Shown piece after piece: positions 5,621 through 49,799 of a DNA stretch of 64,000 bases. How positions within the stretch are numbered: the stretch's first letter is position 1; every line of letters starts with the position of its first letter. The stretch spans positions 13,202 through 77,201 of the forward strand of contig CAYJXI010000004.1 of assembly GCA_964374105.1 (NCBI GenBank). Reading direction: 5' to 3'. The notes beneath the pieces are model-generated. The model worked only from the letters and a program-made list of their open reading frames with translations. It was not told where the DNA came from and ran no database searches. This DNA comes from an uncultured Planctomycetales bacterium. Its GTDB lineage: Bacteria; Omnitrophota; Gorgyraeia; Zapsychrales; JANLHA01. The position numbers and the translations under genes were made by a program.

Positions 5621-6199
5621 ATGATTTATTGGGTTGCCTACTATATAATTAAAATTTTTTTTAAGATATTTTTCCCTATTCGAACAACCGGTTTTGAAAA
5701 TATCCCCCCCAGCGGAAGTTATATCCTGGCTAGTAATCACTTAAGTTATCTAGATCCATTGATTATTGGATTAAGTATTCCAAGAAGATTAAGTTATCTT
5801 GCCAAAGATTCGTTATTTAAGAACCGAATTTTCGGTGCTTTATTAAAACAGTGTGGGGCCTTTCCAGTTAAAAGAGAGACATCTGATATTCGATCCATTC
5901 GGGAGGCTTTAAAAAGGATTCAAAAAGGGGAACCCCTCGTTTTTTTTCCCCAAGGGACCAGAAAGGCTTCTTTAGAAAATGTTAAAATTTATTCTGGAAT
6001 TGGATTTCTGGTGGCCAAAACAAGGGTTCCGGTTATACCTATTAAAATTACTGGTTCAGATCAGGCTCTTCCCCCCGGTCGTCGCTTCCTCAAACGACAT
6101 CCAGTTTTTATCCACTTTGGTAAACCCTTAGAATTTGCCAAGGAGGATGTCTATCAACAGGTAGCCAGCCGTATTATGTCAACTATTGAATCCCTTTAG
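5621..6199 (+). CDS. plsC: 1-acyl-sn-glycerol-3-phosphate acyltransferase
   Basis: N-terminal hydrophobic helix, HX4D acyltransferase motif (ASNHLSYLDP), FPQGTR motif, 192 aa. Confidence 0.75.
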   Translation: MIYWVAYYIIKIFFKIFFPIRTTGFENIPPSGSYILASNHLSYLDPLIIGLSIPRRLSYLAKDSLFKNRIFGALLKQCGAFPVKRETSDIRSIREALKRIQKGEPLVFFPQGTRKASLENVKIYSGIGFLVAKTRVPVIPIKITGSDQALPPGRRFLKRHPVFIHFGKPLEFAKEDVYQQVASRIMSTIESL

Positions 6200-6423
6200 A
6201 CAATCGTAACGATGGATACCTAACTAGTATCAATTCCTTATAATTCTTACCGCTCACTGATTTGCACCGATTTGCCTTTTGTTACAAAATATGTTATATT
6301 TACGATTGGAAGTCTGAAAGCGCTTTCTTATTATTACTTAACTATACACATTGCAATAAGTTATATCATTCCAAGAGATTTTCATGGGTTTATTACTTGA
6401 TTCTTTGTTGAATTTGAATTTGA

Positions 6424-9400
6424 TTGAGGTGTCAGAAAGTGATCAATTTTATTGAGCGCAAGCGAAACCCTAATATTTATCGTTTCATTACTGGATTTTT
6501 CTGTTTCTCTTTTTTTCTTAGTAGTATTATCCCGCCCTACTCTTTAAGTTACGCTCAGACTTTTCCTCAATATCTTCCCAACCAATTTCCTAATTTATCC
6601 GGTTATTCTATCCTTAATCTCCCAACCCCGGGAACAATGATAACGATGAGTGATGAATTTATCCCGGTCCTTGTCAAAGGAATTACCCTTTATCCTAATA
6701 ATCCACTCCAATTTGATTTTATTGTAGATACTGGTGATACAGATTTGGAAGGAGAAGAATTAAAGACAGAATCCAGTAAGTTGATCAAGTACTTTTTGGC
6801 CTCCCTTACCGTACCAGAAGAGGAATTATGGGTTAATTTATCCCCCTATGAAAAGGATCGGATCATTCCAGAAGGCTTAGGAATCACCGAAATGGGCAAG
6901 GACCTTCTGGCCCAGGATTATATTTTAAAACAATTAACTGCCTCGTTAATTTATCCTGAGAATGATTTGGGTAAAGAGTTTTGGGCACGAGTTTATAAGA
7001 AGGCACAAGAAAAGTACGGATCGACAAATATCCCCATTAATACCTTCAATAAGGTATGGATTCTTCCAGACCGGGCGGTTGTCTATGAACATGAGGGGAG
7101 TGCCTTTGTTGTTGAGCGTCATTTAAAAGTGATGCTCGAAGAAGATTATTTGAGTTTACAAAATAACCTGGGGAATGAAAAGCTGGGCACCCATCAACTT
7201 AAAGAAACCGATGTTAAAAACTTAAGCAACATTTCTGGTGAGGTGGTAAGAGAGGTGTTGATCCCGGAAATCGAAAAAGAAGTCAATGAGGGTAAAAACT
7301 TTGCTAACTTAAGGCAGATCTATAATTCCATGATCTTGGCGACATGGTATAAAAAGAATCTCAAAGAAAGCCTTTTGGGGCAAGTTTACATGGATCAGAA
7401 TAAAACCAAGGGTGTAGATGTTGACGACAAACTTATCAAACAAAAGATTTATGATCAATATATTGCCGCCTTTAAACAAGGTGTCTACAACTATATTAAG
7501 GAAGACGTTGACCCATTAACCCAAGATTTAATTCCCAAAAAATATTTTTCAGGAGGAGCCATGGGTGTCTGGGCAGAGCAATTGATTGAGCTGCAAGGAA
7601 GCCTGGAAAATCAACCTCCCCGGGTCGTGCAAGCGGTTACAAAACCTCGCGGCAAACATCGAAAGATCACCTGGGAAGCTTTAGATGTGGGAACCAATGC
7701 CAGACCTGAGGTGGTTGATGAGCTTGCAAAAGTTTTCCGTGGGCCAGCGATGCGGCTGTCCGGACTGGGATTAGATGAGAATCAGGAAAAGCTGGTTGAT
7801 GATACAATAGCCACCTATTTTGAAGGGGAAAGACTTAAAAGTGGCCGCCTTTTACTCCCACGGGATGAAGAATATCAACTCTTGGATCCCGATGGGGCCT
7901 TAAGGGATAATGGTGTCAAGATTTATCTTCTCCCGGGGTTAATCAACAAGATACTCCAGTTGGCGGATCAACGTAAAATTCTAAATCCCCCCATTGATCT
8001 TATTAGTCATCCTGGTCCTACCCGAAGAAATATTTATATTGATCCTGCTTATTTTGAATCCATATTGAAATTACAACCTAAAATCTGGCTCTCCCAATGG
8101 GCGGTCCATGAACTGGCGCATATCGAGCATCCTGAGGCGGAGGAAAAAGAAATTCTAAAAATGGCTCCGATTCCCGGGGTAACTCTTGCTGAAGAAAAAC
8201 CAGAAAGACTCAAATCCAAAGAGGAGCGTAAAAAACAAAAGGAATTTAAAAAACCAATCTTCAAGCGACCTGTTACGTTGAAGTCATCCATCCGCGAACT
8301 TGATTTTGGTCTTTTCCCTAATATTGCCCGGCCGGTGTATGCTTCTTTAGAGGAGGCAGGGATCAAAACCGTTGGCGATTTTAGGAACTGGACCGAAGAA
8401 GATCTCTCGAAGCTTAAATATATTAAAGGGAGAGTTGTCAAAAGAATCAAAGATACCTTGTTGAGAGAAGTCAAGGTGAAATTAAAAGGGGAAGAGGAGA
8501 AAAAAGCGAAGCCAGTGACAAAGAAAAAAAAGGAAGAAAAGACAGTTAAGGAAGAAGGGCCTATCACGCTAAAGTCCTCGATTCGACGGTTGAATTTGGG
8601 CAAGAGGCCATTTTCGGACAAAGTCTTTAAGGCCTTGGAATCGTCTGGGATTTTTACCATTAAAGACCTTAAAAATAAATCAGTAGAGGAATTGTTTAAG
8701 ATCAAGTGGATTGGAACGGATGTTGTGTTAAGGATAAAGACAGAATTGGTAAGAACGGTTGGGGAGAATTTAAAAGGCGAGGTATGGCCTGAAGTAAAGC
8801 CGGCGGTTAAGAAAGAGAAAAAGATTGATTTAACTGTCACAACCGAAACAGAAGGTTTTAGTGATGTCTATGGCAAGTCCTATTTGCAAGGGAACTCCGG
8901 TGTTTCCTTTACCAAGGTCCAGCTAAGAGAATTGATGGGCCGTTGGTCAGAGAAAGTTCCCTCTAAAGCTTCGGTCGCCCCGATTTCTTCCCGAATGACC
9001 ATGGGACTTTTTAATATTGGGTTGTTGGAGAGACTAGGCAATGGAACACCGGGACGACCTTATCAATACCGATTAGTCAGCTGGCTTCGGGAGAAGGCCT
9101 TAAAGTTGGATAATATCGAGGAGTGGTTAAGTTCTCAAGATCCCCGGCTCATCGAAAATGAATTGCAAAAGGCCCATGTTCGATATCGTAATATCCCTAA
9201 GGTTCAATCATTGGTCAAAAAATGGGAAAGAGATGTTAAGAAGGGTAAGGCACCGGCAAAAAAAGAGGTCGCAGCCGCAAGAATATTTGGACGTGTCCCT
9301 GGCTATACCATCTATGATGCCTTATTGGATATTATGTATTTAGAGAAGGAACTCAGTGGGAAAAAAGGAAAAGCCCCGCGAGTATCAGAAAAACAAGCCG

Positions 9401-12400
9401 TGGATTTAAAATTGACAACCGAAACTGAAGGCTTTAAAGATGTTATTGGAAAATCGGATTTGCAGAAAAAACCCGGGGTGACCTTTAATAAAAGACAGCT
9501 TATGCAATTTTGGGGACGATGGTCCAATGTCAAAAAAGTCCCAGGTAAAGAAGGGACGGCCTGGCGGGTGTTGATGGGGCTTTATTCGATTGGACTCCTT
9601 GAGGGGAAAAAGACAGATAAGGACTCCAAAATTTCCCAAGAATTTCGTTTGGTCAGTTGGTTAAGAGAAAAGGCACTGCGAGTCAAGGATATTGAAGAGT
9701 GGCTCATCTCCCAAGATCCTGAGCTCATTGAGGGAGAACTTAAAAAGGGCCATATCCAATATCGTGATTATAAAAGAGTTCGTAAGATTATTCAGCAATG
9801 GCAAAAAGATGTTAAACAAGGAAAGATTCCCAAGAGAAAAGAAATCCCGGAAGTGAAAAGAATGGGACGAGTTCCTGGGTATACCATTTATCATGCCTTA
9901 TTGGATATCATGAGCCTGGAAAAAGAATTAAGCAAAAAAGGAAAAGCTCCGGCCATGCGTTGGTCAGGATTGGAAATGGATGAGGGTCAAGAAAAGCTGG
10001 TGGATGATGCGGTTGCGAGTTATTTCGAAGGAGAGAAACTGATGGAAGGTCGATTGATCCTGCCGCGGGATGAAGAATTCAAGGTCCTGGATCCCGAAGG
10101 CGTCTTACGGGATAATGGGGTTAAGATATATTTTCTCCCCAATTTGATTGGTAAGATTACGCAGTTAGCCTCAGACCGTAAAATCAATAATCCCCCCATT
10201 GATCTTGTCAGTCACCCCGGTCGCACAAGAAGAAATATTTACATTGACTCAGCCTATTATGATTCAGTCTTAAAAAATCAAAGTAAGATTTGGAGAACGC
10301 AATGGGTTGCCCATGAACTGGCCCATATCGAAAACCCTGAGGCTGAGGAGATGACCATTCGAAAGATAGCTCCATTACCAACGGGTGAGAAAGTTGCTAA
10401 AGAAGCCCCTGTCAAACCGGAAAAGAAAAAAGCTGAAAAGAAAATAGAGAAACCTGAAAAACGAGAAGAAGAAAAGGAGAAGGTGGTAAAAGAAGAAGGG
10501 CTGATCACACTTAAGTCCTCGATTCGACGATTAGATTTTGGTCTTTTGCCAAATATTGCTGGACCTGTGTATGATTCTCTGGAGGAGGCGGGAATTAAAA
10601 CAGTGGAAGATCTCACTCAATGGAGCGAAGAAGATTTATTGAAGCTTAAATACATTAAGGCTAGTGTGCTACAGAGAATCAAAGATACATTATGGAAAGA
10701 AGTCAAAAAGAGATTAAAAGGGGAAGAGGAGAAAAAAGCGAAGCCAGAGAAAAAGAAGAAAGAAGAAAAGCCTATTGTGGAAGAAGGGCCGATAACGCTT
10801 GAGTCTTCGATTCGCAGATTGAATTTAGGGAAAAAACCATTTGTGTTGAAAGTCTACAAGGCCTTAGAATCAGCTGAGATTAAGACTATTGAGGATCTTA
10901 AGAATAAATCAGAAAATGAACTGTTAAAGATCAAGTGGATTGGGAAAGGAGTTGTGGCAAGAATAAAATCAGAACTGTTAAGCACGGTTGGGGAGACTTT
11001 AAAAGGCGAGGAGGTTAAAGAACCTCCTGAACCAATGGCTAAAAAGGGAGAGAAAAAAGAAGAGAAACCTCCCAAAAAAGAGAAACCGATTGACTTAACT
11101 GTTACAACCGAAACGCAAGGGTTTCAAGACATCTTTGGCAATCCCAATTTGCAAGGGAAACCCGGTGTGACCTTCACTAAAATCCAATTACAAGATTTAA
11201 TGGGGCGATGGTCAAATAAAGTTCCTTCTAAAGCTTCGGTAGCCCCGATTTCTTCCCGAATGACCATGGGGCTTTATAATGTTGGGTTACTCGAACGAAG
11301 AGGCAATGGTACCTCGCGAAGTCCTCATGAATATCGTCTGGTCAATTGGCTGAGGGAGAAAGGCTTAAAGTTGGATGATATTGAAGGGTGGTTAAATTCT
11401 CAGGATCCTGATTTAATGGAAAAAGAATTAGGCAAGGCCCATGTTCAATATGACGATCTCCCCAAGGTGCAAGAGTTGGTCAGAGCATGGAGGGTCCAAG
11501 TCGATTCTGGCAAAGCTGTAGAGAAAAAAGAACGTGAACCAGTCAAAAAATTTGGACGAATGGCCGGTTACACAATCTTTCATGCCCTGATTGATATCAT
11601 GAGTCTGGAAAAAGAATTAAGCAAACAAAAAGCTGAGGCTCCAAGCAAAGAGGCGGGTCCTAAGGTAGAAAAAAAGCCAAAGGAAAAAGAAAAGATTGCC
11701 AAACCCGGTACAACCCTACCGGAAAATGTCCTTAAGGCTTTACCATTTTTTGAAAAAATTTTGAAAAATCAAGTTACTGAAATTCCCCCAGAACAAATTC
11801 CTATTATGCGTGAGGTTTATAAGGATATTCTTCAAACATTTAGCAATATTAACGGTGATCCAGAAGCCTGGTTGAAGGCGCAGTTTAAGGTGGAAGAGGA
11901 TAACCTTGCGATTTTAATTTGGATCTATAATAAAAAACCAAAAATTGTCCAGTTTTTCTTGAAGGCATTGGAGGGAAGAGAAGAAGCCAAAAGAAAAAAA
12001 CCTATTAAAAAAGAGGAAGTCCCCAAGCCTGAAACAAAACCATTTTATCGAGAGAAGGGTGTACAACAATTTCTTGCGTCACCATCCTCGAAATTTATCC
12101 TTATATTCAATCAAAGCGGCTCAAAAAGAATTATTGATCTGAAGACCGCAGAGGATACGGGAATTCAGATTGAAGAGAAAGATGGGCCTAAGGCCCTAGA
12201 TGCAGTATTTTCACCAGAAGATCAATATCTAGTTGTTTGGTATGAATATGGGCCGGCTCGAATATGGGATTTAGAGAAGAAACAAGAACGCACGGATATT
12301 TCGATTGGCACCAACGAAGTCAGTCCGAAATTAATACCCGTCTTAGAACAAAGATATGGGAGGGGAACAGAAGCATTTAAACGTCAGCTGCGCAATGCCA

Positions 12401-15400
12401 AAGGTGTAAAAGCAGCCAAATTTTCCTTGGAAGGGAGGCGACTTTACATTCAGTATGCCAATTCCTTTGCCAAGGTGTTTGATGTGGAAACGGGTCAGGT
12501 CCTGGGTCCGGAGACAAAGACGCATGAACGGGCCATGTTTTCCCGCGATGGGACACTTTTAAAGGTTTGGCCTAAGCCAAAGAAGGGAGAAAGACGGGGG
12601 ATCTCCAAGCCAAATGTGATTGATATTAAGACTGGTGAGTTCAAGGGGGATCCTGGGAATGCCTTTGACTATGACGAGGAGGAAAATCCTCGTTTTGTTC
12701 ACCAAGTCCATGTTTATCCCCGTTTTTATGATCTGCCTCGTAAACCTATTTTCCTTAAAGTGTCACCCAATGGGAGATGGGTTTTATATTCGGATGGGCA
12801 AACTTATCTTCAAATATATGAGGTGGCGACAAAAAGGCTTCTTCCGATAACCTTTTCTAAAAATATCATTGATGGAAAAAGGGAGTTCCAAGTCGAGCCG
12901 ACCTTTACCGAGGATAACAAACTCCTTTTGAGTTTACGCCAATTTCGCGAAAGGATCTCAGGAAAACCCGATAGATGGGCAAGGTTAGATAGTCTGTTGA
13001 TTGATCTTGAGAACCCAACCGATATCAAAGAATTGCCCCGTAAGGCTTGGATTTCCTCAGATGGGAAGAAAATATTTGTTGTCACCAATATCGAACATGT
13101 TGAATCCGGCCCTCAATTACCTCGCCATCGCCTTTTGGAGGCCCTTGAGTTGAATGATACGGGTGTAGCTTTCCGGGATGATGTTAAATTAGAACTTCCT
13201 CAATTTACCTCCAATAGTAAAAAATTGATTGTCTATTTTGAAGATCAAGGGTTAGATGTGATTGATTTGGCTGTGGCCGAACCAAAGGTGATCAAAGAGG
13301 AAATTCTCCCGGAACCTGCGAAAGCAAAGGGTATTAAAGAAATTGACCTTGATGAATTCTTAAAAAAGATAGAAGGAACCCCTAATGATATCCCCTATAA
13401 AGTCTTGGATTGGATCACAGAGCAGAAAACACCCTTAAGATTTGAAGATCCCCCAAGGGCCCCACCGGTTTTTGAAGCTCTTTCTATTTACGATATCCCT
13501 GGGAAAGGAAGCCGATCCTTAGAGAAACTCTTAGAAGATAGCAAATTTCATAAACGGATAGGAGAGCATTTCATTTATCAAAGGGACGATGGGAGTTATT
13601 TGGTTATTCGATTCTTAAAAGAAGGGGAGGACCCTGGGCGGCTCCTCTATGAAAGCAAATGGTTTGATTATTTGCAGGAATTAAAGGACAGAGGGATAAA
13701 ACTCAATGGGAGTTACCCCAAAGCTGTCCTTTTAGACAATGAGCGGGTGGTGCGTTTAAGTCCACAGAAATTACCCGAAAGATTAGCAGATAACATACAA
13801 TTTTTTAAGGATGAGTCGGTTCAATTGCACTCAAGGGAGGAGGGGGATACATCTGGAATATCGATTTATACGCTTATGGCGTATAAAATCAGAGATTTGG
13901 ATTATGTGATTCCTTTGCCGGATGCCAAGCCCATTGACCAATCCATTCGGATCAACCTCCATGACTTATCTTTATTGCTTCGTTTGGGTTTGGTGAATCC
14001 AGAAATCATTAATCTTTTAAGCCGAAGCAGGATCAATGGGGGAGTGCATGAATCATTTTTGTGGATGGCGGAAATTTTACATGATGCCGAATGGAATAAA
14101 CGGGCAGAACGGCATAAGCTTTTTGAACTCGAAAGTTCGATCATCCAGGTCAAGATGAAGGCCAGTGGTCCTGGAAATTTTGCGGGTATGGTCAAGATCA
14201 ATGACTTAATCGAGTTGAAACCGCCGCTGGTGGATTTTAAGCAACTAGAAACCTATTCGGCGGATGATCGGACGAAACTTCTTTCTGTCTATTTTGTCGG
14301 GAATTATCTGATTGCAAGCATCTTAAGTGAGGCTAAAAGTTTACGGGAAGAATTTAAATTGAATGAGAATAGTCCTGACCATATGACAAAATTTGCCGAA
14401 CGTTTAAAATCAATCTATACAAACGCTTATGTATCCTTTAACAATAAACCAATACCCACCAAGATATTTTCTCTCATCAATTGGCAAGAATTGGCTCGAC
14501 AGATAGCTCAATTCATGACGGACAAGAGCCCTGAGGCGGTTAAACATCAAAGATTACCCTCGGAATTCCTCAAAGCCAACTATATTTTTACCGCCTTTAT
14601 GGTGGAAGATTTTGCCATGACCCATGGTAAAAGAGATCAGGCGATGTTGACAGGAATAGATTTAGAATCTGCCAAAGAGCAAGTCTCTTCCATACTGAGT
14701 GAATTTAATAATTGGGCACAGTCGTTTCGGGGGGAATATGATCCGGTCAAGTTATTCAGTGAAATTAGGGCGCAGATGACCACTTCTCAAGCATTGGCGG
14801 CATTTATCAAGCAAAATTTAGAAAAATTATTTCAGATCCGAAAGGAATTAACTGATAAAAAAGAGCTAGATAGTTTAAAGAGTTCGGTTTTAAGACAAAC
14901 CATTTCCAAATTGGATACACTTTTGTATCAATTGACTGGTGAACCGGCCTTCGTTTCTTTTGAAGGTTTTCTAGAGGCTTTTAGAGACAAGAAATCCCCA
15001 TTTTTTACATTAAAACCCGAAACAAGGTTAACCATCACCACCCAAGATACAAGGGAGTACAAATTCGCTTTTCGTCAATTTGATAATAACTTTGTCCCCA
15101 ACGCTATTTACGGGACAAAAGGAGAAACGGTTTACAATAACCATTACGGGCCAAAAGGAGAAGTCATTATCAGGGATTATATAACAAGCATTAAGGTCGG
15201 AATGGTTGATCAGGCGATAGTGACAAGGAAAGAACAACCCCCAACTCCAGGAACATTTACCAAAGGTGGGATTGATTTGAATCCAGAATTGCTAGATCTT
15301 CAAATCAAACGGGATGGGAAAGGAGTCCCGTTACCCTTGCTCCAACAACCTATCCAAGATATGAAGATTGAAGGCTTTTTACCGATCATCATCAATGTGG

Positions 15401-15582
15401 CGCCCGTCAACCTGCCTTTGCTTCTGGGAGTAGCGGAACCTGGAAAAAAGAAAGAAGACAAAGAGGCAGCACCTACCCCTCTGGATAGTGATTTAGGCTA
15501 TACGTCTCCTAGAGGCGTGGATTTGGTTAATAAGCGCTCAAAGAATTTCTATGCTAAGAAATTGAGTTTGGTCCTTCCTTAG
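6424..15582 (+). CDS. Giant (3052-aa) secreted or surface protein with internally duplicated modules. The true start is possibly GTG 6439, preceded by GAGGTG.
   Basis: Uninterrupted 9.16-kb ORF. The N-terminal hydrophobic signal-peptide-like segment is FFCFSFFLSSIIPPYSLSYA. It carries two HELAH-containing modules, four HhH modules resembling the RNAP alpha C-terminal domain, three copies of an approximately 190-aa module, a Lys/Glu-rich linker and a TolB/WD40-like region. It is followed by a strong intrinsic terminator. Confidence 0.8.
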   Translation: MRCQKVINFIERKRNPNIYRFITGFFCFSFFLSSIIPPYSLSYAQTFPQYLPNQFPNLSGYSILNLPTPGTMITMSDEFIPVLVKGITLYPNNPLQFDFIVDTGDTDLEGEELKTESSKLIKYFLASLTVPEEELWVNLSPYEKDRIIPEGLGITEMGKDLLAQDYILKQLTASLIYPENDLGKEFWARVYKKAQEKYGSTNIPINTFNKVWILPDRAVVYEHEGSAFVVERHLKVMLEEDYLSLQNNLGNEKLGTHQLKETDVKNLSNISGEVVREVLIPEIEKEVNEGKNFANLRQIYNSMILATWYKKNLKESLLGQVYMDQNKTKGVDVDDKLIKQKIYDQYIAAFKQGVYNYIKEDVDPLTQDLIPKKYFSGGAMGVWAEQLIELQGSLENQPPRVVQAVTKPRGKHRKITWEALDVGTNARPEVVDELAKVFRGPAMRLSGLGLDENQEKLVDDTIATYFEGERLKSGRLLLPRDEEYQLLDPDGALRDNGVKIYLLPGLINKILQLADQRKILNPPIDLISHPGPTRRNIYIDPAYFESILKLQPKIWLSQWAVHELAHIEHPEAEEKEILKMAPIPGVTLAEEKPERLKSKEERKKQKEFKKPIFKRPVTLKSSIRELDFGLFPNIARPVYASLEEAGIKTVGDFRNWTEEDLSKLKYIKGRVVKRIKDTLLREVKVKLKGEEEKKAKPVTKKKKEEKTVKEEGPITLKSSIRRLNLGKRPFSDKVFKALESSGIFTIKDLKNKSVEELFKIKWIGTDVVLRIKTELVRTVGENLKGEVWPEVKPAVKKEKKIDLTVTTETEGFSDVYGKSYLQGNSGVSFTKVQLRELMGRWSEKVPSKASVAPISSRMTMGLFNIGLLERLGNGTPGRPYQYRLVSWLREKALKLDNIEEWLSSQDPRLIENELQKAHVRYRNIPKVQSLVKKWERDVKKGKAPAKKEVAAARIFGRVPGYTIYDALLDIMYLEKELSGKKGKAPRVSEKQAVDLKLTTETEGFKDVIGKSDLQKKPGVTFNKRQLMQFWGRWSNVKKVPGKEGTAWRVLMGLYSIGLLEGKKTDKDSKISQEFRLVSWLREKALRVKDIEEWLISQDPELIEGELKKGHIQYRDYKRVRKIIQQWQKDVKQGKIPKRKEIPEVKRMGRVPGYTIYHALLDIMSLEKELSKKGKAPAMRWSGLEMDEGQEKLVDDAVASYFEGEKLMEGRLILPRDEEFKVLDPEGVLRDNGVKIYFLPNLIGKITQLASDRKINNPPIDLVSHPGRTRRNIYIDSAYYDSVLKNQSKIWRTQWVAHELAHIENPEAEEMTIRKIAPLPTGEKVAKEAPVKPEKKKAEKKIEKPEKREEEKEKVVKEEGLITLKSSIRRLDFGLLPNIAGPVYDSLEEAGIKTVEDLTQWSEEDLLKLKYIKASVLQRIKDTLWKEVKKRLKGEEEKKAKPEKKKKEEKPIVEEGPITLESSIRRLNLGKKPFVLKVYKALESAEIKTIEDLKNKSENELLKIKWIGKGVVARIKSELLSTVGETLKGEEVKEPPEPMAKKGEKKEEKPPKKEKPIDLTVTTETQGFQDIFGNPNLQGKPGVTFTKIQLQDLMGRWSNKVPSKASVAPISSRMTMGLYNVGLLERRGNGTSRSPHEYRLVNWLREKGLKLDDIEGWLNSQDPDLMEKELGKAHVQYDDLPKVQELVRAWRVQVDSGKAVEKKEREPVKKFGRMAGYTIFHALIDIMSLEKELSKQKAEAPSKEAGPKVEKKPKEKEKIAKPGTTLPENVLKALPFFEKILKNQVTEIPPEQIPIMREVYKDILQTFSNINGDPEAWLKAQFKVEEDNLAILIWIYNKKPKIVQFFLKALEGREEAKRKKPIKKEEVPKPETKPFYREKGVQQFLASPSSKFILIFNQSGSKRIIDLKTAEDTGIQIEEKDGPKALDAVFSPEDQYLVVWYEYGPARIWDLEKKQERTDISIGTNEVSPKLIPVLEQRYGRGTEAFKRQLRNAKGVKAAKFSLEGRRLYIQYANSFAKVFDVETGQVLGPETKTHERAMFSRDGTLLKVWPKPKKGERRGISKPNVIDIKTGEFKGDPGNAFDYDEEENPRFVHQVHVYPRFYDLPRKPIFLKVSPNGRWVLYSDGQTYLQIYEVATKRLLPITFSKNIIDGKREFQVEPTFTEDNKLLLSLRQFRERISGKPDRWARLDSLLIDLENPTDIKELPRKAWISSDGKKIFVVTNIEHVESGPQLPRHRLLEALELNDTGVAFRDDVKLELPQFTSNSKKLIVYFEDQGLDVIDLAVAEPKVIKEEILPEPAKAKGIKEIDLDEFLKKIEGTPNDIPYKVLDWITEQKTPLRFEDPPRAPPVFEALSIYDIPGKGSRSLEKLLEDSKFHKRIGEHFIYQRDDGSYLVIRFLKEGEDPGRLLYESKWFDYLQELKDRGIKLNGSYPKAVLLDNERVVRLSPQKLPERLADNIQFFKDESVQLHSREEGDTSGISIYTLMAYKIRDLDYVIPLPDAKPIDQSIRINLHDLSLLLRLGLVNPEIINLLSRSRINGGVHESFLWMAEILHDAEWNKRAERHKLFELESSIIQVKMKASGPGNFAGMVKINDLIELKPPLVDFKQLETYSADDRTKLLSVYFVGNYLIASILSEAKSLREEFKLNENSPDHMTKFAERLKSIYTNAYVSFNNKPIPTKIFSLINWQELARQIAQFMTDKSPEAVKHQRLPSEFLKANYIFTAFMVEDFAMTHGKRDQAMLTGIDLESAKEQVSSILSEFNNWAQSFRGEYDPVKLFSEIRAQMTTSQALAAFIKQNLEKLFQIRKELTDKKELDSLKSSVLRQTISKLDTLLYQLTGEPAFVSFEGFLEAFRDKKSPFFTLKPETRLTITTQDTREYKFAFRQFDNNFVPNAIYGTKGETVYNNHYGPKGEVIIRDYITSIKVGMVDQAIVTRKEQPPTPGTFTKGGIDLNPELLDLQIKRDGKGVPLPLLQQPIQDMKIEGFLPIIINVAPVNLPLLLGVAEPGKKKEDKEAAPTPLDSDLGYTSPRGVDLVNKRSKNFYAKKLSLVLP

Positions 15583-15611
15583 ATTGTTTGTTAAGGAGAT
15601 TTTTACTAAAG

Positions 15612-15640
15612 GCAACCTAAGATTTAGGTTGCTTTTTTTT
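15612..15640 (+). terminator. Rho-independent terminator of the giant gene
   Basis: GCAACCTAA-GAT-TTAGGTTGC: a 9-bp perfect stem and 3-nt loop followed by T8, located 30 nt after the stop codon. Confidence 0.8.
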
Positions 15641-15745
15641 ACTACAAAAAACCACCTCATGCCTACGAAAGCAGGCATCAACAAGAAGGACCTTATTACA
15701 CAAGAGTGGATTCCTGTTTACACAGGATTGACTCATAAAATTTAA

Positions 15746-15774
15746 TTGACAAATCAGTCTATTTTGCGATAATG
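15746..15774 (+). promoter_or_regulatory. Candidate sigma70-type promoter for rpsA
   Basis: TTGACA (15746-15751), a 16-nt spacer, then GATAAT. It lies about 85 nt upstream of the rpsA start. Confidence 0.35.
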
Positions 15775-15855
15775 GGTGCACTTTAGAGCTTGGTAAAGGT
15801 TAATCTTTGTCAAATTCTAAAGAATTTTTATAGAAAAGAGAGGTTTATTTAAGGT

Positions 15856-17412
15856 ATGAATGAAAATCACCGTTCATCGTTAGAATCCCTGTATGACAGC
15901 ACTTTAAAGTCTATTCGGGAAGGAGAGATTGTCAAAGGAAATATTGTTGCCATCAGCAGAAGTGAGGTTGTGGTTGATATTGGTTTTAAATCGGAAGGTT
16001 TTGTCCCTATCGAAGAATTCCGAAACAAAGAAGATTTGGAAATCAACAAAGAGGTGGAAGTCCTTATTGAATCCGTTGAAGATGAAGAAGGCCGACTGGT
16101 TCTATCGAAGTTGAAAGCCGAGAGAGTTAAGGGATGGCAAAAATTTATGGTGGATATTAACGAAGGAGACATCGTGGAGGGACGTGTGATCAAATTGGTT
16201 AAGGGCGGTTATATGGTGGATATCAGTGGTGTGGAAGGGTTTCTCCCTATGTCTTTATCCGCTTTTAAAGGATATTCTTCGGACGCAATCATGTCGCATA
16301 AATATCGTTTCCAAGTAGCCAAGATCAATAAACAAAGACGGAATCTCATCCTTTCTCGTCGAGATGTTGTTCAGAAAGACCGGGATATGGTGAGGGAAAA
16401 ACTTTGGAGTGAATTGCAAAAAGGACAACGTCGTAAAGGAATCATCAAAGGGATTACCGATTTTGGAGCCTTCATTGATTTAGGTGGGGTAGATGGATTA
16501 TTGCATATTACGGATATGAGCTGGTCACGGATCAATCACCCTACCGAAATTGTCAAGGTGGGTGATCAAATTGAGGTGCTGATTTTAGATTTTGATAAAG
16601 AAAATTCAAAGGTCTCCTTAGGGTTAAAACAGATCACTTCCAATCCCTGGGAGGATATTTATGATAAATATCCGGCAGGGTCTAAGGTGAGGGGCAAAGT
16701 CGTTAACATCATGCCTTACGGTGTTTTTGTGGAAATAGATAAAGGGATTGAAGGGCTTCTTCACTCCTCGGAAGTTTCTTGGCAAAAGAAGCTTGTCAAC
16801 CCTCAGGAGATTTTTAAATTAGGAGATTTGATCGATGTTGTGATTATCAATGTGGATAAGGATTCTAAGCGGATAAGTTTAAGTATGAAACAGCTAGAAA
16901 ATAACCCTTGGTTGGAGGCACAGAAAAATTATCCTATCGGTACCAAAGTCAAAGGGACAGTCAGAGGTTTTACGGATTACGGGGCATTCGTTGAATTGGA
17001 ATCGGGCTTAGAGGGAATGATTCATGTCTCAGATATGTCTTGGACTAAAAAAGTAAACCATCCTCAAGATATCTTGCAAAAAGGACAACAAATTGAGGTA
17101 ATGGTCTTGGGTATTGATCCCGAGAATCGAAAGATCACCTTAGGGTTAAAACAGCTTTTTGAGAATCCCTGGCCGGAAATTGTCCAAAAATACCCGGTGG
17201 GTTCAGAGGTAGATGCCGAGGTCGTCTTAAATTCAAATTTTGGTGTTTTTGTGAGACTGGATGGGGAAGTGGAGGCCTTGGTTTACTCTTCGGAAATTGA
17301 TAAAGAACAAGCGGTCTCTTTAAAGCCAGGTGATAAATTAAGGGTTAAGATTATCAAAGTGGATGCGGAACAAATGAAGATTGGGGTAAGCACCCGGTTA
17401 TCTCCATCCTAA
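15856..17412 (+). CDS. rpsA: 30S ribosomal protein S1
   Basis: 518 aa with multiple tandem S1 (OB) domains carrying repeated GxV.G.V..I..fGaFV.l motifs. Confidence 0.85.
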   Translation: MNENHRSSLESLYDSTLKSIREGEIVKGNIVAISRSEVVVDIGFKSEGFVPIEEFRNKEDLEINKEVEVLIESVEDEEGRLVLSKLKAERVKGWQKFMVDINEGDIVEGRVIKLVKGGYMVDISGVEGFLPMSLSAFKGYSSDAIMSHKYRFQVAKINKQRRNLILSRRDVVQKDRDMVREKLWSELQKGQRRKGIIKGITDFGAFIDLGGVDGLLHITDMSWSRINHPTEIVKVGDQIEVLILDFDKENSKVSLGLKQITSNPWEDIYDKYPAGSKVRGKVVNIMPYGVFVEIDKGIEGLLHSSEVSWQKKLVNPQEIFKLGDLIDVVIINVDKDSKRISLSMKQLENNPWLEAQKNYPIGTKVKGTVRGFTDYGAFVELESGLEGMIHVSDMSWTKKVNHPQDILQKGQQIEVMVLGIDPENRKITLGLKQLFENPWPEIVQKYPVGSEVDAEVVLNSNFGVFVRLDGEVEALVYSSEIDKEQAVSLKPGDKLRVKIIKVDAEQMKIGVSTRLSPS

Positions 17413-22782: not shown

Positions 22783-25700
22783 ATGGAAAAATTAAAAATC
22801 AAAAATTTCGGTAAAATCAAAGATGCATTTGAATTACCACAGCTTTTGGATATACAAGTCAAAGCCTATGAGAGCTTTCTGCAAATGGAGGTATCTCCGG
22901 AAAAGCGAAGTGATCAGGGCTTAGAAGAAGTTTTCCGGGAGGTTTTCCCATTGGAAAGTTATGATGGGCAAATAAAACTCGAATATATCAGTTATTTGCT
23001 TGGGAAACCGAAGTATTCCGATATGGAATGTCAGCGAAGAAACATGACCTATGCTGCTCCCTTAAAAGTAAAATTACGCCTCATTACCCCGGTTGACATA
23101 AAAGAGCAGGAGGTTTACTTTGGGGATTTCCCTTTGATGACAGAAACAGGAACCTTTATTATTAATGGGGATGAGAGGGTGGTGGTTTCTCAGATCCAAC
23201 GTCCGCCGGGGGTCTCTTTCGAGGAGGAAGTACATCCTACGGGAAAAAGTATTTATCATGGGCGGATTATCCCTTCCCGAGGGGCATGGTTTGAGGTGAA
23301 ATACGATCTTAACGATGTGCTGTTTGCTTATATTGATCGCCGCAGGAACTTTCCGGTGACCCAGATTTTAAGAATCATGGGGTTAGCAACGCCCGAAGAG
23401 ATGCAAAAGATGCTTGGGGAGGAGGATATTAATAAACTCAAGAATACCCTTGAGCGAGATCACACCACCAACAAGGAAGATGCCCTCCTAGATTTCTATC
23501 GGAAGATGCGGCCTACTGAACCGGCTACTGTGGAAGTTGCTCAGGCATTATTCTTCCGATTATTTTTTGACCCTAAACGATATGATTTAAGTAAAGTAGG
23601 ACGCCACATTATCAATCGAAAATTAGGAACCAATATCCCGCTGGAAAATCGAGTCTTGGATATCAATACGGTGGTAGCGGTTATCCGATATCTTTTTGGT
23701 TTAAGAGAAGGAAGAGGGGAAACAGACGATATTGACCATTTGGGCAATCGCCGGATCAAAACCGTAGGAGAACTCATCCAGAACCAGGTCAGGATTGGGT
23801 TGGCACGGTTGGAAAGATCCATCAAGGAACGGTTGGTCGTTATGAGTTCCTTTGAAAATCTAACCGCCCATCATTTGATTAATTCTCGTCTTTTCTCTAA
23901 TCAGATTCATGATTTTTTTGCCAGAAGTCAATTGTCACAATTCATGGATCAAGTCAACCCCCTTTCCGAAATGACCCACAAAAGAAGGTTAAGTGCTCTT
24001 GGGCCAGGAGGATTGTCCCGGGAGAGGGCGGGCTTTGAAGTGAGAGACGTTCATCCGACCCATTATGGCCGTGTTTGTCCTATCGAAACACCCGAAGGTC
24101 CTAATATTGGTCTTATTTCTTCTTTGACAACCTGTGCTCGAGTGAATGAATTGGGTTTTATTGAAACGCCGTATTACAAAGTGGAAGACGGCCGTCTGAC
24201 CAGGAAGATAGAATATTTAACCGCAGATGTCGATCAAGACAAACATATCGCCCCGGCCAGTGTCCAGGTTGATAAAGATGGACAATTCTTAGATAAGGAA
24301 ATCATTTGTCGGCATAAAACTGATTTTCCCAAAGTCAAACCTCAACAAATCGATTTTAAAGACGTTTCTCCAAAGCAGCTTGTTTCAGTAGCTACCTCCC
24401 TTATTCCTTTTTTAGAACATGATGATGCAAATCGCGCCCTGATGGGATCCAATATGCAGAGGCAAGCGGTTCCCTTGATGGTCACTGAAGTTCCTTATGT
24501 GGGAACAGGGATGGAGGAGAAGGTGGCAAGGGATTCGGGGGTGGTCGTGGTGGCCAGAGAATCAGGGAGAGTCAATAAGGTCGATGGGAAAGAGATTGTA
24601 ATTGGTGAGGAGGTTTATCAACTGAAGAATTTCATGCGTTCTAATGCTAATACTTGTGTCCACCAGAGACCTTTGGTTCAATTGGGGGATTATGTGGAGA
24701 AGGGACAGATTATTGCGGATGGAATGGCCACCCAAGATGGAAGAATTGCGTTGGGACGGAATGTGTTGGTGGCGTTTATGCCTTGGCGAGGGTATAACTT
24801 TGAGGATGCTATTCTGATCAATCAACATTTGGTTAGGGAAGATGTTTTTACCTCAATTCATGTTGAAAAATTTGAAATTGAAGCGAGAGAAACTCGCTTA
24901 GGCAATGAAGAGATTACCCGGGATATTCCCAATGTGGGTGAAGATGCCCTTAAGGATTTGACCGAAGAAGGTGTTGTTCGTATCGGAGCAGAGGTTAAAG
25001 CGGGGGATTATCTTGTTGGCAAAGTGACTCCCAAAAGCGAGAAGGAACTCTCTCCGGAAGAGAGGTTGTTGCGTGCAATTTTTGGGGAAAAGGCCGCTGA
25101 TATTCGCGATACTTCCTTGACCCTTCCTCCCGGAATAGAAGGTGTGATTGTAAATGCCGAGATCTTTCAGAGAACCGAGCGGGGCCGAAAATCAAAAGAA
25201 GATAAAGGGAAAGAAGTGGAAGCTCTTAAAAAAGTCAAAGAATATTTCCGCCAAGAAATTGAATTTATTGAAACCGAAAAGAACAAGAAATTAAGCAAGC
25301 TTTTGGGTATTGATGCAAAAAAGATTTCGAAAATCGACCTCAATGAATATTCCGCTGATACAGAAGTGCAAGAGATATTAAATTTCTTCAATGATAAGAT
25401 TGCAGAATTAGTGGAAGAAGAAGCCCAGGAGCTTGATCGGGCTAAACGAGGCGATGAATTACCTGCGGGAGTTATCAAAAGGGTGGTTGTCTATATAGCC
25501 ACCAAACGAAAGTTATCCGAAGGAGACAAGATGGCTGGTCGTCATGGGAATAAGGGAATTGTCTCTCGGATTCTCCCAGAGGAAGATATGCCTTATTTAG
25601 CCGATGGATCTGCTGTGGATATCATCCTCAATCCATTAGGGGTCCCTTCTCGTATGAATGTAGGGCAACTTCTGGAAACGCATTTGGGGTGGGCGGCGCA

Positions 25701-26277
25701 TGCGCTTGGTTTTTATGCAGAATCCCCAGTCTTCAACGGTGCGACAGAAGAGGAAATCCGCCAATTATTAAGGGAAGCGAATCTTCCCGAAGATGGTAAG
25801 ACAACTGTCTTTGATGGATTCACCGGAGAACAGTTTGATCAAAGAGTGACGGTTGGCTACATCTACATGCTAAAACTCAATCATTTGGTGGATGAAAAGA
25901 TTCATGCCCGTTCCATCGGACCATATTCTTTAGTGACCCAGCAGCCCTTAGGAGGAAAGGCCCATTTTGGTGGTCAAAGATTCGGAGAAATGGAGGTTTG
26001 GGCCTTAGAAGCTTATGGGGCGGCTTTTACTTTGCAGGAGATGTTGACCGTTAAAAGCGATGATGTCAAAGGAAGAAGTGAGATTTATGAAGCTATTGTT
26101 AAGGGTGAACAGAAATTGACAACGGGGGTCCCGGAATCTTTTAATGTTTTAGTCAAAGAATTACAAGGCCTGTGTTTGGATATTAAGCTCGATAAAGCCA
26201 ATGCCGAACCGGTTAAGGATGGGAAAAAAGAAAATAAGGATTTGTTAAGGGAAAAAGAAAAGGAGAAGAAAAGGTAA
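22783..26277 (+). CDS. rpoB: DNA-directed RNA polymerase subunit beta
   Basis: 1164 aa with conserved beta segments (rifampicin cluster [23 protein letters not shown] active-site region). Confidence 0.95.
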
Positions 26278-48800: not shown

Positions 48801-49799
48801 ATGGGGGTTAAGTGGCGTGATTTTCAAATGCCTAAGAGGCTGGATTGCGATGAAGCAAGTTACACAAATACATACGGTCGATTTATAGCCGAACCATTCG
48901 AAAGGGGGTACGGTGTCACTCTAGGAAATTCTTTAAGAAGGATTTTATTATCATCCATCGAAGGCAGTGCGATAACTTCAATTAAGATCGAAGGAGTGCA
49001 GCATGAATTTACAACAATGTCGGGTGTACTGGAGCCGGTGACAGATATTATTCTCAATATCAAAGGCTTGGTCTTGAAATCCCATTCTAAAGTTCCCAAA
49101 TTAATCTATATCAAGGCTAATAAAAAAGGCAAAGTTTTAGCTAAAGAGATTATTTGTGATGAAACAATTGAAATCATTAATCCCGATCATCACATTGCCA
49201 CATTGGGTCAGGATATCCCTTTTAATGTGGAATTGGAAGTCTCTAAAGGCAGGGGCTATGTACCAGCAGAAATGAATAAGAAGGAGGGGGGGGGGCTTGA
49301 AGCAATTGTGGTGGATTCCATTTTTACCCCTATCAATAAGGTTAACTTTTTGGTGGAAAATACTCGGGTAGGCCAAAGGACCGATTATGATCGGTTAATA
49401 TTAGAAGTGTGGACCAATGGGGGCATCAATCCTAAAGAGGCCCTGCTTTATGCGGCTAATATTTTACAGCGACACCTAGATGTCTTTGTGAGTTATGGAC
49501 AACTCCCGGAAGAAGAAGAAGAGGAAGAGGAAATATCTGCGGAAGAACAGGCGCTTTATGAGAAGTTGCGTCTACCTATTTCTGAGCTGGAATTGTCGGT
49601 CCGCAGTGCCAATTGTTTAAAAGAAGCCAATATCAAGACCATAGCCGATTTGGTTAGAAAGAGTGAGTCGGAATTACTAAGTTTCCGCAATTTCGGTAAG
49701 AAATCTTTATCAGAAATCAGTGATCTTTTGAAAGTTATGGGGTTACAATTAGGGATGAAAATTGACAGCAAAAAATTAAGAAAGGTGACTTCAGAATAA
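48801..49799 (+). CDS. rpoA: DNA-directed RNA polymerase subunit alpha
   Basis: N-terminal domain motifs, a poly-Glu linker, and a C-terminal HhH domain (LSVRSANCLKEANIKTIADL). It contains a G10 run at 49286-49295. Confidence 0.95.
   Translation: MGVKWRDFQMPKRLDCDEASYTNTYGRFIAEPFERGYGVTLGNSLRRILLSSIEGSAITSIKIEGVQHEFTTMSGVLEPVTDIILNIKGLVLKSHSKVPKLIYIKANKKGKVLAKEIICDETIEIINPDHHIATLGQDIPFNVELEVSKGRGYVPAEMNKKEGGGLEAIVVDSIFTPINKVNFLVENTRVGQRTDYDRLILEVWTNGGINPKEALLYAANILQRHLDVFVSYGQLPEEEEEEEEISAEEQALYEKLRLPISELELSVRSANCLKEANIKTIADLVRKSESELLSFRNFGKKSLSEISDLLKVMGLQLGMKIDSKKLRKVTSE

Follow-up and report, generated by a model that had tools for sequence, protein, structure and literature searches.

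A giant gene with two copies of a multi-domain block

The stretch of DNA analysed here (the window, 64,000 nucleotides of contig CAYJXI010000004.1, assembly GCA_964374105.1) belongs to an uncultured Omnitrophota-type bacterium and contains a giant open reading frame (ORF) for a 3,052-residue protein that looks secreted. Between a conserved N-terminal part, the head, and a conserved C-terminal motif, the tail, this protein carries a cargo region in which three kinds of module, named A, B and C, recur in the order A1-B1-B2-C1-C2-A2-B3-B4-C3. This order had been proposed in a sequence-only reading of the locus and was reproduced by a protein self-dot-plot and by hidden Markov models (HMMs) of the modules. 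The ORF and its modules are as follows, with positions in nucleotides (nt) of the window and residues numbered in amino acids (aa).

6424-15582, + strand: whole ORF, 3,052 aa from TTG 6424, an uninterrupted single frame of 9.2 kb
7747-8178, + strand: module A1, aa 442-585; zincin-like domain
8269-8493, + strand: module B1, aa 616-690; helix-hairpin-helix (HhH) of the type found in the C-terminal domain of the RNA polymerase alpha subunit (alpha-CTD)
8560-8781, + strand: module B2, aa 713-786; alpha-CTD-type HhH, 49% identical to B1 and 73% to B4
8827-9393, + strand: module C1, aa 802-990; orphan domain, its N-terminal half faintly eS1/S3Ae-like
9403-9951, + strand: module C2, aa 994-1176; extra, older-diverging C, 58% identical to C1 and 56% to C3
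9952-10383, + strand: module A2, aa 1177-1320; zincin-like, HELAH at nt 10312-10326, 71% identical to A1
10501-10725, + strand: module B3, aa 1360-1434; alpha-CTD-type HhH, 73% identical to B1
10789-11010, + strand: module B4, aa 1456-1529; alpha-CTD-type HhH, 73% identical to B2
11092-11655, + strand: module C3, aa 1557-1744; orphan domain, 67% identical to C1

The cargo region is therefore made of a first cassette, A1-B1-B2-C1-C2, and a second one, A2-B3-B4-C3, whose modules are strung on Lys/Glu/Pro-rich linkers like beads on a string; the inter-module linkers consist of 57-81% Lys, Glu and Pro. The module edges agreed with those first proposed, except that the in-frame starts of C1 and C3 are 8827 and 11092 instead of 8826 and 11089. 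At the DNA level, a nucleotide repeat finder returned four families of long direct repeats (255-300 nt, 71-78% identity, spacing of 2205-2265 nt) which span 7744-9108 versus 9949-11373, and found no comparable repeats elsewhere within 6000-16000. The self-dot-plot, the HMMs and these nucleotide repeats concur that a block of several domains was genuinely duplicated within the gene, one additional C lying between its two copies.

Age of the duplicated block

When the two A-B-B-C super-modules were compared through a codon-aware alignment, they shared 65% of their residues and 68% of their nucleotides. For this pair, the method of Nei and Gojobori gave a proportion of synonymous differences (pS) of 0.64, a synonymous divergence (dS) of ~1.44, a nonsynonymous divergence (dN) of 0.23 and a dN/dS ratio (omega) of 0.16, the dS of individual modules ranging from 0.85 to 2.2. 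At identical residues the same codon was shared in 57% of the cases, versus 40% expected from codon usage. The values for each pair of modules were:

A1/A2: 71% aa identity, dS 2.1
B1/B3: 73% aa identity, dS 1.4
B2/B4: 73% aa identity, dS 0.85
C1/C3: 67% aa identity, dS 1.33
B1/B2: 49% aa identity, dS saturated
C1/C2: 58% aa identity, dS saturated
C2/C3: 56% aa identity, dS 2.03 (near saturation)

The duplication had been described as recent, and these identities, together with dS and omega, contradict that description. As judged from dS, dN and omega, the duplicated block is old and both of its copies are under purifying selection. Because the synonymous sites are near saturation, all of the duplications are long past, and the retention of both cassettes by purifying selection means that each of them is functional. 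Furthermore, B1/B2 and C2 versus C1/C3 are older than the split of the super-modules, which makes at least three duplications of different ages. The cassettes arose by stepwise intragenic duplication, in which B gave B-B and C gave C-C' before the whole block was copied; in the simplest history the tandem B and tandem C duplications would come first and the A-B-B-C block would be duplicated later, with the second C included or not.

Two stretches of the copies are much more alike than the rest of the block, and had already been remarked upon:

8481-8515, + strand: 35-nt exact repeat, copy 1, encoding the linker LKGEEEKKAKP that follows B1
10713-10747, + strand: 35-nt exact repeat, copy 2, following B3
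8962-9005, + strand: 44-nt tract, copy 1, within C1 (KVPSKASVAPISSRMTMG)
11227-11270, + strand: 44-nt tract, copy 2, within C3

The 35-nt match is real, with none expected from shuffles, although its second copy lies one base away from where it had been placed. The second stretch is equally real and extends over 44 nt with 1 mismatch, its core 28-mer (8978-9005 and 11243-11270) being exact. In 5,000 shuffles that preserved the protein alignment and redistributed the synonymous states, the exact runs of 34/35 nt and 29 nt exceeded expectation (p ~0.006 and ~0.001, respectively), and they were the only two runs in the super-module alignment to do so. A hairpin-like element, TCCCGAATGACCATGGG, with a 5-bp stem, was also seen in both copies of the C1/C3 tract (8989-9006 and 11254-11271). 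It coincides with the most conserved nucleotides and is too weak to warrant a functional call.

An independent assembly of the same gene was available for comparison. The protein cluster of P0001, the publicly annotated product of the giant gene, includes P0232 from a 108-kb contig of assembly GCA_947085705.1, which has the same gene neighbourhood and 2980/2981 identical residues. A comparison of 25,582 bases showed 2 nt differences and no indel between the assemblies, and the number of modules is identical, so that the comparator is effectively the same strain as the source. The sole coding difference in the giant gene is an A/T at 9366, which changes Lys to Asn in the short C1-C2 linker; the other difference in these 25.6 kb is at position 2392.

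With these data, other accounts of the duplicated block can be weighed. The two exact runs may fit occasional short-tract gene conversion or local nucleotide constraint, not homogenisation of the block. The ongoing concerted evolution that had been put forward is weakly supported, by two runs beyond the shuffles, the remaining block showing no homogenisation. An old duplication followed by such conversion or constraint at just these two short segments is possible, if somewhat less so than its absence: the two longest exact runs exceed what is expected when the protein alignment and the total level of synonymous identity are kept, dS differs ~2.5-fold among modules (0.85 for B2/B4 versus 2.1 for A1/A2), and the hairpin-like element recurs in both copies of the second tract. 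However, the tracts are just two, the p-values are modest once the longest runs were picked, one tract is a purine-rich Lys/Glu linker in which codon choice is narrow, and the hairpin has 5 base pairs only. It is highly improbable that the duplication is recent or still undergoing concerted evolution and that the locus is unstable as a result, with a varying copy number and a risk of collapse in assembly. The 35-nt match and the 44-nt tract exist as that account would have it, both exact runs surpass the alignment-preserving shuffles, and the fact that A copies are closest to each other within each of four proteins (see below) is also expected under concerted evolution; but block identity is merely 68-78% in DNA and 65% in protein, dS values of 0.85-2.2 largely refute it, and the two assemblies agree base for base across the duplicated region. 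Assembly collapse in particular, which had been feared for this locus, is unlikely, since the longest exact repeat is 35 nt and can be resolved by ordinary k-mer assemblers, and since GCA_947085705.1 shows the identical architecture without an indel. It is almost certainly wrong to see an artefact here, with two strain variants misjoined into the block or a giant ORF that is no real gene. The source is a metagenome-assembled contig, yet the second assembly has the same gene in the same context, a DNA divergence of 30% between copies is too great for strain variants, and a 9.2-kb frame stays open with an omega of 0.16, with a head and a tail kept throughout the family and with its own terminator. 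On evolutionary timescales there is something to be said for an architecture prone to duplication; on the timescale of strains and assemblies there is not.

Module A, a probable metallopeptidase-like domain

An exhaustive profile search among 1.84 billion representative proteins found about 45 proteins that carry A modules. In 36 A modules from ~30 proteins, H91, H124, H128 and E136 were invariant and E125 nearly so (>=90%), giving the signature HPG...HExxH...E, in which E136 lies 8 residues past the second His of the HExxH and the invariant H91 lies upstream. The equivalent residues of A1 are H529 (of HPG), H562-E563-x-x-H566 (nt 8107-8121) and E574. Only two HExxH motifs are found in the whole giant protein, those of A1 and A2. 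No sequence match to A was obtained in Pfam, NCBIfam, PDB profiles, PHROGs or PADLOC.

An AlphaFold2 model of A built on the alignment of 36 modules reached a predicted local distance difference test score (pLDDT) of 92.6 and a predicted template-modelling (pTM) score of 0.86. When this model was compared to the PDB with Foldseek, selecase, abylysin and jannalysin came on top, followed by BlaR1 and anthrax lethal factor, with E values of 0.015-2 and template-modelling (TM) scores of 0.3-0.44. Fold matches in a viral library were weak and consistently fell on metalloprotease, IrrE or SprT entries. Motif and model together suggest that A represents a new, previously undescribed family of zincin-like domains of ~145 residues, which would probably be metallopeptidases.

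The position of A within the proteins that carry it is variable. It directly follows the head in the giant protein and in P0024, P0124, P0125, P0137, P0146 and P0148, directly precedes the tail in P0127 and P0136, and is elsewhere repeated inside the cargo. Where it lies between head and cargo, or between cargo and tail, its neighbours in family members are PEPCK, PGM, phosphorylase or UDPGP. The best A homologue, P0121 (2,773 aa, from a JGI metagenome), has five copies of A in the architecture A-HTH-HTH-HTH-A-HTH-HTH-HTH-A...A...A, where HTH is an Xre-type helix-turn-helix. By domain content, the cassettes of P0121 are parallel to the A-HhH-HhH-C cassettes of the giant protein, with another DNA-binding fold. 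Several A modules occur in four proteins (the giant protein, P0121, P0122 and P0123), and in each of the four every A copy was best matched by another copy from its own protein. Therefore, A-headed cassettes would have been amplified repeatedly and independently within genes, or else homogenised slowly.

Module B, an alpha-CTD-type helix-hairpin-helix

In contrast to A, module B was matched by known families. The Pfam model RNA_pol_A_CTD (PF03118) recognised four stretches with 81.7 bits (cut-off 23.8, E 3.1e-23), and HHH_5 and the NCBIfam rpoA models, including TIGR02027, matched as well. By these profile matches, B is an RNA-polymerase alpha-CTD-type HhH domain. The genuine rpoA of the source genome lies at 48801-49799, and B aligns over the whole HhH core with the CTD of its product at ~21% identity. 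A recent capture of the CTD of the genome's own rpoA was ruled out because of this low identity. A Pfam scan of the giant ORF showed neither PF01193 nor PF01000, the RpoA N-terminal domains that are present in the genuine rpoA. Tandem arrays of 2-9 B-like alpha-CTD-like HhH domains were also observed in P0129, P0134, P0138, P0139, P0141 and ~60 unnamed metagenome proteins of 150-1,100 aa.

Module C, an orphan domain with a faint likeness to eS1

The null searches with this protein are to be read with care, since both the word-index and the exhaustive searches missed the query itself. The exhaustive profile search found relatives of B, as of A, and no relatives of C among the 1.84 billion representatives, in a library that lacks the query's own cluster, and none were found in scans of GTDB genomes or JGI metagenome contigs. 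C1, C2 and C3 matched no Pfam family up to E = 5, PF01015 included, and nothing in NCBIfam, PHROGs or PADLOC. No other protein in the searched collections carried C or the combination of B and C. A word-index search with A1-B1-B2-C1 returned no match, not even itself, and is uninformative, as Lys/Glu low-complexity words probably swamped the candidates. By these comparisons, C is an orphan domain. Its AlphaFold2 model, for which three sequences only could be aligned, had a pLDDT of 42, too low for a fold search.

When a profile of the three C copies was compared to the PDB, the only matches below E = 0.05 were eukaryotic eS1/S3a chains (best E 1.4e-4), always in the same register, with positions 12-117 of C on positions 89-201 of eS1. 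Used as single modules, C1 and C3 matched eS1 with E 0.0075 and 0.063, whereas C2 alone had no eS1 match in the PDB search. The C profile scored at least 10 bits on 103/120 real eS1 sequences versus 1/6,000 shuffled ones. In the reverse direction, an HMM from 120 eukaryotic eS1 sequences did not detect C, and the probability given by hhalign for C versus eS1 was 86% with a thin eS1 profile and 21% with a deep one. Homology between C and eS1/S3Ae is thus possible on these profile comparisons, with chances about even, and unproven.

The head-tail family

The two ends of the giant protein are shared with a large protein family. The corresponding features are:

6484-6555, + strand: N-terminal hydrophobic, signal-peptide-like segment, aa 21-44, ending in SYA|Q and conserved family-wide
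6601-7698, + strand: conserved head domain, aa 60-425, with ~50-66% identity to the family members listed
15199-15459, + strand: conserved C-terminal tail, GGIDLNPELLDLQIKRDGKGVPLP...EGFLPIIINVAPV

With the whole protein as query, 1,672 proteins were retrieved at E <= 0.001, whose source names, where given, were mostly Candidatus Omnitrophica or Omnitrophota. The relatives listed share only two parts with the giant protein, the N-terminal ~400 residues and the C-terminal motif. Residues 6-420 of the query align with the N-termini of these relatives at 50-66% identity, the signal-like segment ending in YAQ included, and residues 2926-3012 align with their C-termini at 45-80% identity over the tail motif, GGIDLNP..LQIKRDG.GVPLP...EGFLPVIIN, of ~60-80 residues. 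The cargo found between both parts is unrelated from one member to another. It includes enzymes of glycolysis and gluconeogenesis and others (PGK, GAPDH, TPI, PGI, phosphoglucomutase, PEP synthase, isocitrate lyase/malate synthase and PEPCK), as well as J domains, HEAT repeats and response regulators. One contig may bear several head-tail paralogues (proteins P0002-P0120).

No relative of the head was found in Pfam, NCBIfam, PDB profiles, PHROGs or PADLOC, and nothing matched the tail in Pfam, NCBIfam, PHROGs or PADLOC. In the searchable literature we found no specific description of the head-tail family or of Omnitrophota polyproteins. A preprint on a hypervariable locus turned out to deal with another phenomenon.

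Ends, neighbourhood and remaining parts of the gene

The true start of the giant ORF is probably GTG 6439, which is favoured because of the family alignments and of a Shine-Dalgarno sequence, GAGGTG, 7 nt upstream. The public annotation of the protein (P0001 and P0232) begins at M72 (nt 6637), thereby dropping the conserved signal-peptide-like N-terminus. The possibility that translation begins internally, at the exact repeat rich in purines, was ruled out, since the linker downstream has no start codon.

At the 3' end of the gene lies one further feature:

15608-15636, + strand: strong hairpin resembling an intrinsic terminator (stem of 13 bp and a T run), located 26 nt past the stop codon

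A promoter-like, near-consensus site (TTGACA-16-GATAAT, with TG upstream) is seen at 15746-15773, before rpsA. With the terminator-like hairpin on one side and this site on the other, the giant gene looks like a separate transcription unit. Its upstream neighbours are plsC-like and phosphoglucomutase genes, and downstream lie rpsA, tyrS, two tRNAs, nusG, rplKAJL and rpoBC. The product of rpoB (22783-26277) was at most 58% identical to the GTDB species representatives, in a pattern scan mostly seeded on a universal motif, and the lineage is probably thinly represented. Its placement in Omnitrophota is based on the source names given for matches to the head family.

Two ORFs of 263 and 112 aa run on the opposite strand, at 8049-8840 (-) and 10278-10616 (-), facing the purine-rich A/B portions of both cassettes. 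Most likely these ORFs are side effects of Lys/Glu-rich sense codons, which keep the antisense frame free of stops. The ~1,150 residues from C3 to the tail are unique to the giant protein and, apart from two weak matches, unassigned. One is a set of WD40/beta-propeller-like matches at 12076-12540 (aa ~1885-2039), with E ~3e-4 and under the Pfam thresholds. The other, a 'SidJ-related pseudokinase' NCBIfam match at 13531-13767 (aa 2370-2448), scored 20 bits against a cut-off of 300 and was discarded as evidence. No PDB relative was found for aa 2331-2925.

A possible role for the cassettes

The above results probably describe two old paralogous cassettes, in which a zinc-peptidase-like head is followed by nucleic-acid-binding arrays within an exported or anchored chain. 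Each cassette would start with the zinc-peptidase-like A and continue with an array of small nucleic-acid-binding domains, and the duplication would raise the valency of the protein to four HhH and three C domains. The A domains might cut the polyprotein at the cassette borders or cleave a partner bound by the array, an idea taken by analogy from the protease/DNA-binding pairings of ImmA/IrrE-Xre and SprT/Wss1, and the N-terminal signal segment together with the head domain might export or membrane-anchor the whole array. Several points weigh against this proposal. A is recognised by neither a Pfam nor a PDB sequence profile, its assignment as a peptidase comes from the motif plus weak fold matches, and catalysis by A is something we infer. 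A nucleic-acid-binding role for C is a guess, given the low pLDDT of its model, and the cytosolic enzymes that are often the cargo of the family fit poorly with export. On the side of the duplication, dS near saturation is imprecise, so that only 'old', and no date, can be said; and the two exact tracts show, at the nucleotide level, that the copies have not evolved wholly independently.

An alternative is a protein that stays in the producing cell as a membrane-tethered cytoplasmic scaffold, in which A would be a non-catalytic docking domain and B and C would bind the cell's own nucleic acids, or partners from RNA polymerase or the ribosome, near the membrane. It is favoured because much of the family cargo is cytosolic, mostly enzymes that need ATP or NAD (PGK, GAPDH, TPI, PGI, PGM, PEPCK) and response regulators, and the giant gene itself sits among housekeeping genes, by rpsA and the rpoBC/ribosomal cluster. 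However, the N-terminus resembles a signal peptide that can be cleaved, YAQ coming after an h-region, and the invariant metal-ligand residues of A argue for catalysis or at least for metal binding; a scaffold of this kind is rather unlikely. More speculative, and improbable, is that the cassettes are host-mimicking effector modules of predatory or episymbiotic Omnitrophota, which would be exported by way of the signal-peptide head, cut by A into [HhH-HhH-C] units and act on the information-processing machinery of archaeal or eukaryotic hosts or prey; in that case C would be eS1/S3Ae in a diverged form and the head-tail family an undescribed, phylum-wide system for delivery or display of cargo. 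The proposal of exported or anchored cassettes with a zinc-peptidase-like head is the one that we retain.

As a duplication, the case is ordinary, the duplication of a block of domains followed by long divergence being the way in which many multi-domain proteins grow. Less ordinary is the setting, a very large Omnitrophota-specific family in which the exported-looking head and the tail are conserved while the cargo is exchanged freely. The same can be said of A, a putative new HExxH family, confidently modelled, which stands at the boundaries of cassettes and would have been amplified within genes independently at least 4 times or slowly homogenised, and of the orphan C with its unproven likeness to an archaeal/eukaryotic ribosomal protein. 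The combination of a zinc-peptidase-like domain with an array of small DNA-binding domains appears to have arisen with two folds, HhH in the giant protein and Xre-HTH in P0121. If the ideas on processing or on effectors were true, the family would bear on the host interaction of the ultra-small, host-dependent Omnitrophota.

Comparison with known systems

Tandem-repeat surface proteins of the Rib/alpha-C type are also exported and also repeat entire folded modules within one gene. As a rule their repeats have almost the same DNA sequence and differ in number from strain to strain, whereas the copies in the giant protein are ~30% diverged in DNA and no variation was seen between two near-identical assemblies.

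A setting closer in taxonomy is that of the 'Archaeovorins' (bioRxiv 10.1101/2023.11.21.568195), giant Omnitrophota proteins with N-terminal export signals, which embedded peptidases have been proposed to cut into pieces. The giant protein shares with them the phylum-level setting, a long multi-domain build and the N-terminal export signal. Archaeovorins are defined there by an ORF of at least 20 kb, domains of glycosyl transferases (GT), glycosyl hydrolases (GH), methyltransferases and NUDIX plus C39/S8 peptidases, and many transmembrane helices. Compared to this definition, the giant protein is shorter (3,052 aa and an ORF of 9.2 kb, versus at least 7,000 aa) and Pfam detects in it no glycosyl-transferase/hydrolase, methyltransferase, NUDIX, C39 or S8 domain; the searchable text of the same preprint contains no description of the head or of the tail domain.

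With regard to the individual modules, the ribosomal protein eS1/S3Ae (PF01015) is restricted to archaea and eukaryotes, and its faint likeness to the C profile is accompanied by no match of the Pfam model. In contrast to the alpha CTD of RpoA, the B modules are found as tandem pairs within a 3,052-aa protein that bears a signal peptide.

The minigluzincins (selecase, proabylysin and projannalysin) are, like A, small zinc-peptidase catalytic domains of ~100-150 residues that have an HExxH plus a downstream acidic or His ligand, and no other structures matched the A model better, although the match is weak (E 0.015, TM 0.32-0.44). No relationship at the sequence level links them to A, which differs by one more invariant His (HPG), by a beta/alpha part at its N-terminus and by its place inside multi-domain proteins, where it often occurs several times. 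Wss1/Spartan has been placed among the minigluzincins (PMC4559962). Enzymes of the Wss1/SprT type combine proteolysis with DNA binding, and the A+B/C and A+HTH cassettes would do likewise. As for ImmA/IrrE (M78), A matches none of the M78 Pfam models and its partners in the giant protein are HhH and C instead of HTH; nevertheless, IrrE-like entries appear among the weak viral fold matches of A, and ImmA/IrrE with its Xre-type HTH pairs an HExxH peptidase with DNA binding in the same way as A is paired with the Xre-type HTH triplets in P0121.

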